Assembly (NCBI GenBank): GCA_965218695.1 | Contig: OZ244651.1 | Location: forward strand, 1,696,001-1,760,000 | Length of the DNA stretch: 64,000 nt | DNA from: Nitrosopumilus sp. | GTDB taxonomy: Archaea > Thermoproteota > Nitrososphaeria > Nitrososphaerales > Nitrosopumilaceae | Reading direction: 5' to 3' | Part shown: positions 4,912-8,031 of the stretch, piece after piece | How positions within the stretch are numbered: position 1 is the first letter of the stretch | How the letters are laid out: the number at the start of each line of letters is the position of its first letter | The notes under the pieces: generated by a model | Told to the model about the DNA's origin: nothing | The model's input: only the letters and a program-made list of their open reading frames with translations | Database searches by the model: none | Program-made: the position numbers and the translations under genes

Positions 4912-6105
4912 TATACCTTTCCTACCGTCACGGGCATAACCCGCACTGGTGCCAAATAGAGTCAAAAGTTTGCACCAAACAGTGCGTGCCATGACGTGCC
5001 CACACCAAGGCAAGCTGACACACGCCATTAGGCCTGTTTTTTTTATTTTGATTTCCCATGGGATCCCTGGGCACTCAGGTTGTCTCATGCGGTCTTACAA
5101 AGACCTTCATGACGTCAGGCCGCCTTGCGTGTTCTACTGCCTCGGAGAATCTTTCCAGCGGAAAGGTGGAATCAATCACGGATTCGACGGATATAATTCC
5201 GGATGCAAGCGCCTTGATTGCAGGCTTGAACAGGCCGCATCTGGAGCCCACAATGGTCACCTCGTTTATCACTGCAGGGGTAAGATTCGGATTCCCCCTT
5301 GATGCGACAGTGGACTTTAGTATTATGGTGCCCCTTGGCCGTACGAGCCTCATGGTGTCGGCAAACCCGGAGTTGCTCCCGGAGGACTCCACCACCAGAT
5401 CATATTGCTGTTCATCAGGGGAGCCTATCCCGATCTTGGTCGTTATTCCGAATTTTGCCAGCCGGGCAAGCTTGCTTTTGTGCCTTCCAAAGCACGAGAC
5501 GTGCGGGCAGGCAATCCTGAGTACCTGGGAGATCAGATGCGCCAGCCTGCCATCGCCCACTACTGCAACATTCCATTCGGGTTTCAGGCGGATCTGCTCT
5601 GCAATCTCAAATGCTGCAGCCAACGGTTCCACAAATACTGCCTGCTCGTCACTCATCGAGTCGGGGATGGGGTGCAGGTTCCTTTCAGGGAGCGAGAGGA
5701 GTTCTGCAAAGGCGCCGTCCCGCCCCAGTATTCCAAGGACTGTCCTGTCAGGACAGTGCCTTGCCATTCCCCGGGCACAGTACCCACATGTATCGCATCC
5801 GGCATTGATCTCGCCTACGACCCTCCGTCCGATCATCCCAGGATTCTCAGATTTCAGGACTGTTCCGACAAACTCGTGGCCCATGATGCCCCTGTATCCC
5901 ATGTAACCGTCAAGAATCTCCAGGTCGGTTCCGCAGATTCCCGCCAGGTCGACCCTGACAAGCGACTCTCCGGGTTTTGGAACCGGATGGTTCTCATCCA
6001 TGACTGCATGTGGGAATTACATACAAAAGTTACATTCTTACCGCATTTTTTGGCGTTTTCTCGGCAAATGGCGCTTTTAAATAATAACGCGCCATATGTG
6101 CAATA

Positions 6106-7461
6106 TTGATCCTCACCAAAACGCTCCGCGTCAAGCAATCCAAAGAAAATTCGTCAAAGATATGGGATCTGCACCACGCCGCAAGGTGGTGTTTCAACGA
6201 GGGAGTAAAAACTATGTTCACGCGCGACATTTCTTCAAGAAAGGCAGAAGGCTTGCTGACAAAACTCCGGAAGGAGCAAAAATGGCAGCTGAAATATCCA
6301 AGAAACATGCTGCGCGCAAATTTCAACAACGGCTGCAAGGCTGTCAATTTGGCAAGAGCTGTCCGGAGGAAAAACAAGACGCCGCCTCCGTTAACGCCTG
6401 ATCCGTATTTCAGGAGGAAGCAAGGCGGCAGGCAGCCCGCGATCAGCTCGTTTCAAAAATTAAAGATCATCAAAAACACGCTGAACATGGGGCCGTGCAA
6501 GATTGGGTTGGCCGACGCGTGCGACGAGGAAATAAAATCGTTCCAGATAGTCGAGACCACGCGCAAGATAACCAGACATACAAGGCCCGAAGACCGCACG
6601 TACGAACTGCACGTCCAGTACGAGCACGTCCCAATTGCCAAAAAGGACGGCGACGCCAAGGCAATAGATCTCGGAGCCGACAACATGATCGGCATGTCGG
6701 TGCTGGACAACGGCTCACACGAACTGATAAAGCTGCCAAAAGGCGCAAAGAGGCACAAGCATGACGCCCTGGCAAAAAGGCAGTCAAGACAGTCCAAGAG
6801 GCACAAGAACGGCAGGAATTACAGGCAGGAACAGAGGCGGATCAACAAGAAGAACCTGAAGATAGTACGCAAAAAGGCTGATTTCGTGCGCAAGTCATTG
6901 TGCAGGATTTTCAAGGACGCGGCCGTCGTGGTGTTGGAAGACTTGAAGACGGCCCAACTCATAGGCAAGGGTTATGGAAAACGTGGGCTTAACAGGACGC
7001 TGTCTTATGCCTCGCTCGGCTACGTCAAGGATGAAATAATCCAGCATTGTGCCAAGAACGGCATCCACGTAGTTTTGGTAGATCCGGCATATACAAGCCA
7101 GACGTGCTCGGTTTGCGGGCACGTGGACAAAAAATCGAGGGACGGAGAAAAGTTCCAATGCACGAAGTGCACGCTGGCAAATCACGCTGACATCAATGCC
7201 TCGGAGAACATGGTTTACAGGGCGGTATCAGGGGCGGCAGGGAATGTCGTCTGCAAGCAGAAGGACGGCATGGGACGGATCGCCCTCAAGGTGAAAAAGT
7301 TCCAGAAGGAGAGAACCAATCCGGACCGTTTCCAGTTTGGCTCCAGGAGCCATGCGGGGCATTATTGCGGGAGGGCTGATGCCCATCTGCCCGCAATGGT
7401 GCCATTGCTGCTAGAAAAACACGAAAGTTGCACCAAGAAACGGTGTAACTTTTGTATGTAA
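6106..7461 (+). CDS. tnpB: RNA-guided endonuclease TnpB (RuvC plus Zn ribbon)
   Basis: RuvC-I AIDLG, RuvC-II VVLEDL, YTSQTCSVCG...FQCTKC Zn finger, RuvC-III HADINA; stop codon lies inside the right TIR. Confidence 0.93.
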   Translation: MILTKTLRVKQSKENSSKIWDLHHAARWCFNEGVKTMFTRDISSRKAEGLLTKLRKEQKWQLKYPRNMLRANFNNGCKAVNLARAVRRKNKTPPPLTPDPYFRRKQGGRQPAISSFQKLKIIKNTLNMGPCKIGLADACDEEIKSFQIVETTRKITRHTRPEDRTYELHVQYEHVPIAKKDGDAKAIDLGADNMIGMSVLDNGSHELIKLPKGAKRHKHDALAKRQSRQSKRHKNGRNYRQEQRRINKKNLKIVRKKADFVRKSLCRIFKDAAVVVLEDLKTAQLIGKGYGKRGLNRTLSYASLGYVKDEIIQHCAKNGIHVVLVDPAYTSQTCSVCGHVDKKSRDGEKFQCTKCTLANHADINASENMVYRAVSGAAGNVVCKQKDGMGRIALKVKKFQKERTNPDRFQFGSRSHAGHYCGRADAHLPAMVPLLLEKHESCTKKRCNFCM

Positions 7462-7466
7462 TTCCC
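7330..7466 (+). ncRNA. Candidate omega-RNA scaffold (3' part) overlapping the tnpB 3' end
   Basis: Hairpins 7338-7352 (6-bp stem), 7358-7403 (14-bp stem, 2 G-U, nested GGGC/GCCC) and 7421-7455 (14-bp stem, 2 G-U); position typical of TnpB omega-RNAs; 5' boundary unknown. Confidence 0.55.
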
Positions 7467-7605
7467 CTGCATGCCTTCCATCAAAGCAGATGGCTCTCAT
7501 GGTACGGCTGTATTCGTGCCGGGTTTTAAAATAACTGATTTGTATCGGAACCGGCATGCCACACACGGGATGCCAATTAATAATCGGAGGTATTTCAGAC
7601 TGCAA

Positions 7606-8031
7606 ATGAGTTATCGGTTTTTGGATCATGCAACGGATGCAATCGTTGAGGTGGACGCAAAGGATCTCAAGGAAGCCTTTGCGGTGGCTGCCCGTGCAGT
7701 CATAGACCTGACCATCGACCAGGGTACGGTGGCAGAGAAGGGCCAAAGGCAGTTTTCGGCAGGCGGCAAGGATCTGCACTATCTTCTGTTCAGCTGGCTT
7801 GAGGAGGTCGTGTTTGTGCTCATTACGGAGGGGTTTGCAATAGCCAGGCTGGAACTTGACCTAGAGGAGGAGACGACTGGCGGCACCCACAGGATACACG
7901 CAAGGGCGTACGGCGAACCGCTTGACCTCCGCAGGCACAACTTCAAGGTGGAGGTAAAGGCACCCACGTTTTACGACATGCAGATCAGCGAGAAGGACAG
8001 GGTCCGCATGAGGTTCCTGCTTGACTTGTGA
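7606..8031 (+). CDS. Archease
   Basis: MSYRFLDHATDA...EVKAPTFY...FLLDL. Confidence 0.92.
   Translation: MSYRFLDHATDAIVEVDAKDLKEAFAVAARAVIDLTIDQGTVAEKGQRQFSAGGKDLHYLLFSWLEEVVFVLITEGFAIARLELDLEEETTGGTHRIHARAYGEPLDLRRHNFKVEVKAPTFYDMQISEKDRVRMRFLLDL

Follow-up and report, generated by a model that had tools for sequence, protein, structure and literature searches.

In a 64,000-nucleotide stretch of Nitrosopumilus sp. DNA (the window; positions refer to it unless another locus is named), we found a 1455-bp element (6012-7466) that is bounded by inverted repeats and whose sole long open reading frame (ORF) encodes a TnpB protein. The element is a non-autonomous carrier of TnpB of the IS1595 type and does not belong to the IS200/IS605 group. 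Its right terminal inverted repeat (TIR) is continuous with a series of stems, and the pattern of substitutions among relatives supports well their assignment to a structured RNA of the TnpB sense strand, which would overlap the 3' end of the gene and run through the right TIR to the transposon end. On balance, we favor the view that region 7233-7466 is the scaffold of the TnpB omega-RNA, that the right TIR is part of this scaffold and that TnpB recognizes and cuts the site from which the element is absent.

A predicted structured RNA that runs through the right inverted repeat

A preliminary inspection of the letters (the sequence-only reading) had placed much of the inner right TIR in the stem of a predicted omega-RNA. 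This stem, formed by 7421-7434 (ACGAAAGTTGCACC) and 7442-7455 (GGTGTAACTTTTGT), has 14 bp including 2 G-U pairs and was present in the minimum free energy (MFE) fold; of the 14 nt in its 3' arm, 12 fall inside the right TIR. Further stems that had been listed at 7358-7403 (14 nt, 86%) and near 7338-7352 (a small one) were also found in this fold. The ORF tail enters the repeat as had been described, and the stop codon (TAA, 7459-7461) falls within it. As a whole, region 7300-7495 (196 nt) folded at -77.2 kcal/mol, compared with -57.7 +/- 4.2 kcal/mol for 200 shuffled versions, none of which was as low (z = -4.69).

Right ends of related elements were then aligned, initially 15 and later 50 that were non-redundant. 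The MAFFT alignment of the 50 was too ragged for column-wise pair counts, and these were taken instead from an 8-sequence subset and from a covariance-model alignment. The RNAalifold consensus of eight diverged relatives of the window's clade contained 38 pairs in 8 helices and spanned ~235 nt. In this structure 95.3% of the cells were paired, versus 34-49% when the partners were slid by 1-3 columns, and 18 of the 38 pairs had compensatory changes, versus 2-4 in the slid controls. Only 0-1 of 500 column shuffles matched the observed pairing values. Helix 1 of the consensus is a hairpin at 7233-7251 (8 pairs, of which 3 show compensatory changes; cells paired, 100%), which is the probable 5' region of the scaffold. 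Helices 2 and 3 are long-range, with pairing in 100% and 96.9% of cells and compensatory changes in 2 pairs, and the terminal stem (7421-7455) corresponds to helices 7 and 8. The stem-loop at 7358-7403 lies outside the consensus apart from one short helix. The terminal stem was present in the MFE fold of 39 of the 50 elements, though the inner repeat sequence varies by subfamily. The suggestion that TnpB and the repeat are co-adapted, rather than TnpB being passive cargo, holds only insofar as the 5' arm of the stem changes along with the inner TIR, which is specific to each subfamily.

We also built a covariance model from the RNA module and aligned its matches, which comprised 32 distinct right ends. 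In the nine outer pairs of the terminal stem, there were 204 Watson-Crick, 52 G-U and 4 A-C combinations, together with 19 others and 9 gaps. This alignment was fitted to the model, which favors pairing but not a bias of G-U over A-C. Since G-U, which preserves pairing on the + strand, was common and A-C, which would preserve it on the - strand only, was rare, the stem behaves as an RNA (or a single strand) of TnpB sense and not as a duplex protein-binding repeat. The sequence-only reading had anticipated G-U-compatible changes on the + strand and had proposed a covariance analysis of homologous 3' ends; both came out as expected for an RNA, and its view of the stem as part of a structured RNA of TnpB sense is upheld by covariation, by the excess of G-U over A-C and by homology of the protein to ISDra2 TnpB. 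When four elements that bear a transposase and have the same tip (L099, L100, L126 and L128) were searched with the RNA-module model, none matched, and thus the terminal stem is not needed by the transposase.

The outer 11 nt of the right TIR (7456-7466) are single-stranded in the RNA model and end in AUUCCC. A loop of the GGGAAU type in helix 1 probably pairs with this tip, ~220 nt downstream, in a pseudoknot similar to that of ISDra2, and a hairpin whose loop is able to pair with the element tip over at least 5 nt was detected in 40 of the 50 non-redundant elements. The right TIR appears to serve three ends, as the transposase site, as an RNA stem and pseudoknot strand, and as the location of the stop codon.

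The TnpB protein

The ORF in the window is intact. The protein contains OrfB_IS605 and Cas12f1-like TNB domains in Pfam (PF07282 at 1.5e-17 and PF01385 at 1.5e-8). In an alignment of nine proteins (that of the window and eight relatives), a RuvC-like triad (D188/E278/D362) and a C4 zinc finger of the CxxC...CxxC type (C334, C337, C352 and C355) were invariant. A profile of the TnpB alignment matched ISDra2 TnpB (8h1j, 8bf8/8exa) with an E value of ~2e-19 over profile positions 46-381, so that the homology covers nearly the whole protein length. By the triad, the zinc finger and this homology to an experimentally characterized TnpB, the protein belongs to the TnpB proteins of OMEGA systems (from obligate mobile element-guided activity). 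The full-length clade is small in the protein database (~29 clusters, all from ENA assemblies), and outside of it similarity is restricted to the C-terminal RuvC half. Pairwise identity among copies from other genomes is 79-97% (99.6% in one pair) and their ORFs are mostly intact, which makes the element family old and subject to selection.

Boundaries and the natural empty site

The element is flanked by an 8-bp target site duplication (TSD) with one mismatch (CTGCATGT on the left and CTGCATGC on the right). The sequence-only reading had assigned a duplication of 7 bp. This assignment was dropped, as was that of a 6-bp duplication with a 24-bp TIR, because relatives show 8 bp and the empty site has a single CTGCATGC. 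Among 33 related TnpB elements, 27 have an 8-bp duplication that matches at 7 or more of the 8 positions, and 21 a perfect one. The TIR tip, GGGAATTA, is common to ~60 related elements. The element occurs once in the window's genome, which also encodes a 39% identical TnpB paralog whose element has identical repeat tips.

The empty allele that had been postulated exists naturally. A genome of the same genus (G002), whose flank is 91% identical, reads ...CCATGA CTGCATGC CTCCCATCAAAG, with the 8-mer present once, and past the 8-mer it continues CTCCCATC... The site is also empty in a more distant genome (G018, 77%). Contigs from three public runs (three studies) join 6003 to 7467 and skip 1463 nt. 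Their flanks differ from the window by 5-9%; their source is therefore a related lineage, and they do not show that the element was excised in this strain. The same runs contain element copies of ~96% identity whose match ends exactly at 7467 and is followed by other DNA, which confirms this boundary and places the element at other loci in other populations.

A separate observation in these data concerns window positions 6538-6601, for which short contigs (65-218 nt) were found in all four runs, with depths up to ~2100-fold (run X5) and ~730-fold (run X1). This segment encodes the most conserved TnpB motif (SFQI.ETT...DRTYE.H), and the deep pile-up presumably reflects many TnpB copies in the samples.

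Relation to IS1595-type transposons

The IS1595 family was reportedly described by Siguier et al. in 2009. We searched 401 genomes of the family Nitrosopumilaceae and detected the TnpB clade in 11 of them. There were 69 repeat-bounded units, all with the tip GGGAATTA: 60 carried TnpB only, 5 a transposase, 1 both, and 3 were MITEs (miniature inverted-repeat transposable elements) of 115-386 bp. The inner part of the repeat differs among subfamilies, yet agrees between the two ends of one element. Genome G160 contains four elements with this tip and 8-bp duplications, which encode a 319-aa protein with the DDE_Tnp_IS1595 domain and the IS1595 zinc ribbon (E = 1e-40). The tip GGGAATTATA is identical in L099, L100, L126, L128, L162, L168 and L180, with sharing limited to the first 10-12 bp. 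An IS1595-type transposase was found in 19 of the genomes searched, including 9 of the 11 with the TnpB clade, in some of them as fragments only. L076 (1382-3982; genome G204) is a unit of 2601 bp with a perfect 8-bp duplication, in which a broken IS1595-type transposase, an internal copy of the repeat and TnpB follow one another in the same orientation; its outer ends appear to have moved it as a composite.

In the window's genome, the IS1595-type DDE domain (PF12762) had no match and only remnants of 43-56 aa were seen. The Y1 transposase TnpA (PF01797) had no match in this 99.99%-complete genome either, and it was ruled out as the mobilizing enzyme. An assignment to IS200/IS605 (IS1341 group) was rejected on the basis of the perfect 23-bp TIR, the 8-bp TSD and the lack of PF01797. 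Members of that group have neither TIRs nor a TSD, their asymmetric ends carry subterminal hairpins, and they depend on Y1 TnpA in cis or trans. An insertion sequence (IS) of the IS1595 family makes 8-bp repeats, as described in the text of PMC12561309. The window's element has such repeats and TIRs and shares its ends with autonomous members, and a transposase of its own is missing. Because its tip and 8-bp TSDs match those of IS1595-family DDE transposons, and its genome has no transposase of that kind, it is a non-autonomous IS1595-type element. In the window's genome it is probably immobile; with no cognate transposase, A instead of G at the position preceding the left TSD (see below) and a TTG start, this copy has probably been stranded.

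Several other features were seen in the related units. The passenger in L099 (579-3415) and L100 (548-3237), both in G160, is a DNA methyltransferase fused to an HNH nuclease (N6_N4_Mtase, 8e-41; HNH, 1e-12), and this gene is split in L100. The MITEs (L112 458-572, 115 bp; L105 2320-2691, 372 bp; L136 559-944, 386 bp) have the same tips and perfect 8-bp duplications, and the 386-bp one has retained the right-end RNA module. The second family element of the window's genome (G000:C1:2315662-2321533; L038 1663-7534), which encodes the 39% identical TnpB, measures 5.9 kb between its tips and contains three extra ORFs (372-395 aa) between TnpB and the left end. By eye, the ORFs nested in L038 and L051 resemble transposases of other IS families. 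Genome G018 has ~15 TnpB elements and a single IS1595-type transposase ORF (L146 537-1541), which lacks the N-terminus and after ~150 aa passes into unrelated zinc-finger/helix-turn-helix-like sequence, as if interrupted by another element.

The guide, the bases flanking insertions and alternative explanations

By analogy with ISDra2, transcription would continue into the flank and the guide would begin at 7467, with the right TSD copy first. Of 20 positions in the putative guide, 19 agree with the empty site in G002. At the filled site, the left junction matches it over only 7-8 nt, versus the ~12 TAM-proximal matches (TAM, target-adjacent motif) that ISDra2 TnpB needs according to PMC10097598, and at the right junction the TIR tip TTCCC takes the TAM position. 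The geometry for discrimination between self and non-self is thus as the sequence-only reading had described it, with a left match of 7 nt. Its candidate TAM, CCATGA, is not conserved among copies. A conserved motif 5' of the left TSD, which it had suggested looking for, does exist; it is a different and much shorter one, and is absent from the window's copy.

This motif emerged when flanking bases were counted in the 49 TnpB elements that have a good duplication, with TnpB setting the orientation. Immediately 5' of the left TSD (-1), 39 of the 49 had G (background 0.22; binomial p ~2e-17), whereas its mirror, C at +1 after the right TSD, was at background level (12/49). G at -1 was present in 9/9 elements of G018, 10/10 of G066 and 10/12 of G160, and also in 9 of 10 elements whose duplication no longer matches. 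Position 1 of the TSD was T in 29 of the 49, and positions 2-8 were nearly unconstrained (0.00-0.17 bits). The 8 copies of the largest subfamily share the consensus A-T-N-G at positions -4 to -1 (A 7/8, T 7/8, G 8/8), with no mirror; this longer motif was found post hoc and needs confirmation. The one-sided G is what a short TAM would give.

The explanation we propose takes as its observed basis the structure, the boundaries, the empty site, the family, the link to IS1595-type transposons and the asymmetric G. The right TIR would be read twice: as DNA, it would be the transposase's end, and as RNA, the 3' arm of the last scaffold stem, with the tip AUUCCC as the guide-adjacent strand paired with the upstream GGGAAU loop. 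TnpB would recognize the element-free site by a short TAM ending in G, followed by the TSD and the right flank, and cut it, and this cutting may favor retention or re-copying of the element. Both junctions of the filled site would fail, the left one by its short match and the right one by the TIR tip in place of the TAM. There is good support for the RNA and for its merging with the repeat, and the proposed guide start and homing are plausible. We advance only tentatively the more specific proposal that a TSD-making lineage of the IS1595 type fused its end repeat with the TnpB scaffold and that a TSD-first guide with a minimal TAM (G or ATNG) directs cutting of the element-free allele. The one-sided G would then result from copies having survived at sites with a TAM. 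If true, OMEGA-type retention or homing would for the first time have been worked out for an archaeal transposon that generates a TSD.

It should be noted, however, that several points weigh against this explanation. The start of the guide at the TSD was placed by analogy, and the 3' TSD of Fanzor is reported to lie within the scaffold (PMC13565253, section 6.2). The window's copy has A and not G at -1. The signal at this position is 1.1 bits, which is low beside the 4-5-nt TAMs of studied TnpBs, and it could reflect a target preference of the transposition machinery, for which the control comprises only 7 elements. Cut-and-paste excision by DDE transposases leaves a double-strand break, which makes the benefit of cutting the empty site less evident than in IS200/IS605, as argued in the text of PMC13565253. 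The TIR tip is invariant and therefore shows no covariation with its candidate pseudoknot partner. A scan of 5900-7700 against Rfam (E up to 10) gave three chance-level matches only, and none of 14 runs was an RNA run covering the stretch. Finally, ten left ends, read outward, match the RNA-module model with up to 56.5 bits, an observation left unexplained by an RNA role confined to the right end.

It is also possible, though we would not expect it, that the RNA is real and that the one-sided G, together with the T at TSD position 1, reflects which targets the IS1595-type transposition complex prefers, with TnpB as cargo whose benefit, if any, would be independent of the site. DDE elements need no homing for donor repair (PMC13565253, section 6.2), the signal is one base wide, and the families are old, as judged from copies of 79-97% identity. 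With an 8-bp stagger, the G would lie at the phosphodiester bond attacked by the 3'-OH of the right end. Target preferences of DDE transposases are normally two-fold symmetric. From a symmetric complex with identical tips, a symmetric preference is therefore expected, and the background level of C at +1 departs from it; a one-sided motif fits retention at TAM-bearing sites, and the longer one-sided A-T-N-G of one subfamily also argues against a mere target preference. Of seven transposase-bearing relatives with the same tip and no TnpB, three had G at -1 and one had C at +1, but seven elements are too few to decide. A general TIR/TSD finder applied to enlarge this control returned only 2 elements, leaving it at 7.

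The omega-RNA might instead end otherwise, with the TSD included in the scaffold or skipped, the TAM within or at the edge of the left TSD, and the guide starting beyond 7474. We regard this as unlikely. Fanzor structures, which place the 5' TSD in the TAM and the 3' TSD in the scaffold (PMC13565253, section 6.2), and the T favored at TSD position 1 would fit such an arrangement. However, Fanzor TSDs are short and sequence-specific according to the same review, whereas the lack of information at TSD positions 2-8 of our elements leaves room for neither a fixed piece of scaffold nor a motif read by the protein.

Still less probable is a role of the hairpin at the DNA level, as a subterminal inverted transposase-binding site or a single-stranded DNA hairpin that serves in transposition, with no function as RNA. 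Its 5' arm nearly copies the inner half of the left TIR, and the module is also present, inverted, at the ten left ends. However, a protein site in duplex DNA would show no strand bias such as the excess of G-U over A-C on the TnpB sense strand, and transposase-bearing elements with the same tip lack the module. The stem is also the last of at least five covarying helices over ~235 nt, and its position agrees with that in the omega-RNAs of homologous TnpBs. A choice of the insertion site by TnpB and its RNA, as in the RNA-guided transposition of Cas12k systems, is highly improbable and was disfavored, since only the one-sided target signal speaks for it, while the 49 right flanks (24 nt) matched the +/-300 bp around other copies no better than shuffled flanks did (the longest exact match was 12 nt for the real and 11 nt for the shuffled flanks, and the distributions were similar) and the catalytic triad is intact, unlike that of Cas12k.

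Feature coordinates and local setting

Table 1. Features of the TnpB element and its predicted RNA in the window
Feature	Position	Strand	Description
Left TSD copy	6004-6011	+	CTGCATGT; 8 bp; last base unlike the right copy
Left TIR	6012-6034	+	23 bp; 100% complementary to 7444-7466
TnpB gene	6106-7461	+	451 aa; TTG start (ATG in relatives); stop TAA 7459-7461
Conserved hairpin	7233-7251	+	GGCGGC / loop AGGGAAT / GTCGTC; loop can pair with the final 6 nt of the element
5' strands of two long-range helices	7256-7266	+	7256-7260 with 7408-7412; 7263-7266 with 7399-7403
Internal stem-loop	7358-7403	+	7358-7371/7390-7403; 14 nt, 86%; MFE fold; subfamily-specific
Terminal stem-loop	7421-7455	+	5' arm 7421-7434, loop 7435-7441, 3' arm 7442-7455 (inner half of right TIR)
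Right TIR	7444-7466	+	23 bp; perfect partner of 6012-6034
Right TSD copy	7467-7474	+	CTGCATGC; first 8 nt of the putative guide
Putative guide	7467-7486	+	~16-20 nt of right flank, by analogy with ISDra2 as described in the text of PMC10097598

The element is inserted 2 bases upstream of the start codon of an alcohol-dehydrogenase-like gene (5075-6001, minus strand) and ~140 bases ahead of an archease gene. Any promoter of the dehydrogenase-like gene must now be located within or beyond the element. At this junction (window 5999-6034), the A/T-rich repeat, which reads TTTTGTATGTAATT in the outward direction, might provide this gene with a TATA-like box.

With regard to the left ends that match the RNA module, L012 (1178-1251, minus strand) and the left ends of L118, L134, L133, L117, L131 and L089 contain an inverted copy of the last 65-75 nt. 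These copies include the hairpin and an AGAAAAA motif, and their counts are 18 for G-U and 2 for A-C.

Comparison with known systems

The closest precedents are the TnpBs in inverted-repeat DDE transposons, and the solo TnpBs with the same ends, described in the main text of Altae-Tran et al. 2023 (PMC10691335). As in those DDE-associated branches, TnpB lies inside inverted-repeat ends with its 3' end no more than 250 bp from the transposon end, and solo copies share their ends with transposase-bearing elements and are presumably mobilized in trans. The difference is in the transposon: IS630 is named for DDE-6 in that study, whereas the family here is IS1595. A later review lists, in its main text, ISL2, IS630 and IS1031 (PMC13565253). 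IS1595 is unnamed in the main texts of PMC10691335 and of this 2026 review, although supplements may list the clade, and these main texts contained no description that we found of a TIR acting as an omega-RNA stem and pseudoknot strand, or of a one-sided motif 5' of the TSD.

With ISDra2 TnpB of IS200/IS605, as presented in the text of Nakagawa et al. 2023 (PMC10097598), the window's system shares homology over nearly the full protein, a predicted RNA that overlaps the 3' end of the gene and the right end of the element, a multi-stem scaffold and a guide-adjacent strand that might engage in a pseudoknot. The right flank would likewise be expected to supply the guide. In ISDra2, the pseudoknot uses nt -5 to -3 before the guide, a feature that the same text describes as common to all Cas12-type guide RNAs. 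In contrast to ISDra2, the carrier here has TIRs and an 8-bp TSD, its genome has no Y1 TnpA, the predicted scaffold is ~235 nt, and TTGAT has its counterpart in a candidate TAM of one to three bases, either G or ATNG.

Like ISs of the IS1595 family, such as ISApl4 in the text of PMC12561309, the elements have short TIRs that start with G-runs and 8-bp repeats that are often A/T-rich, and they have relatives with passenger genes, here the methyltransferase-HNH fusion of L099 and L100. Unlike these ISs, the window's element has no transposase gene, and its passenger is an RNA-guided nuclease whose RNA would overlap the TIR. Fanzor1 in eukaryotic DDE transposons, as covered in the text of PMC13565253, is another TnpB homolog in elements with TIRs and TSDs and raises the same question of how TAM, TSD and guide are related. 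Its TSDs are short, specific and part of the TAM, whereas those observed here are 8 bp and nearly unconstrained, with the conserved base outside the TSD.

According to section 6.2 of the 2026 review, DDE elements should gain little from TnpB (PMC13565253). The role of TnpB in transposons other than IS200/IS605 or IS607 is a question that this family makes directly testable, as it offers ~60 clean-bounded insertions, an authentic empty site, a covarying RNA that ends in the TIR and a one-sided base at the TAM position. At ~450 aa the nuclease is compact, and its TAM may be very relaxed, which would be of interest to genome editing. For annotation, TnpB-only "IS1341-type" calls in Nitrosopumilaceae can be non-autonomous elements of the IS1595 type. 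DDE-associated TnpB was already known, and the system described here is a variant of it in which the TIR and the RNA appear to be fused.

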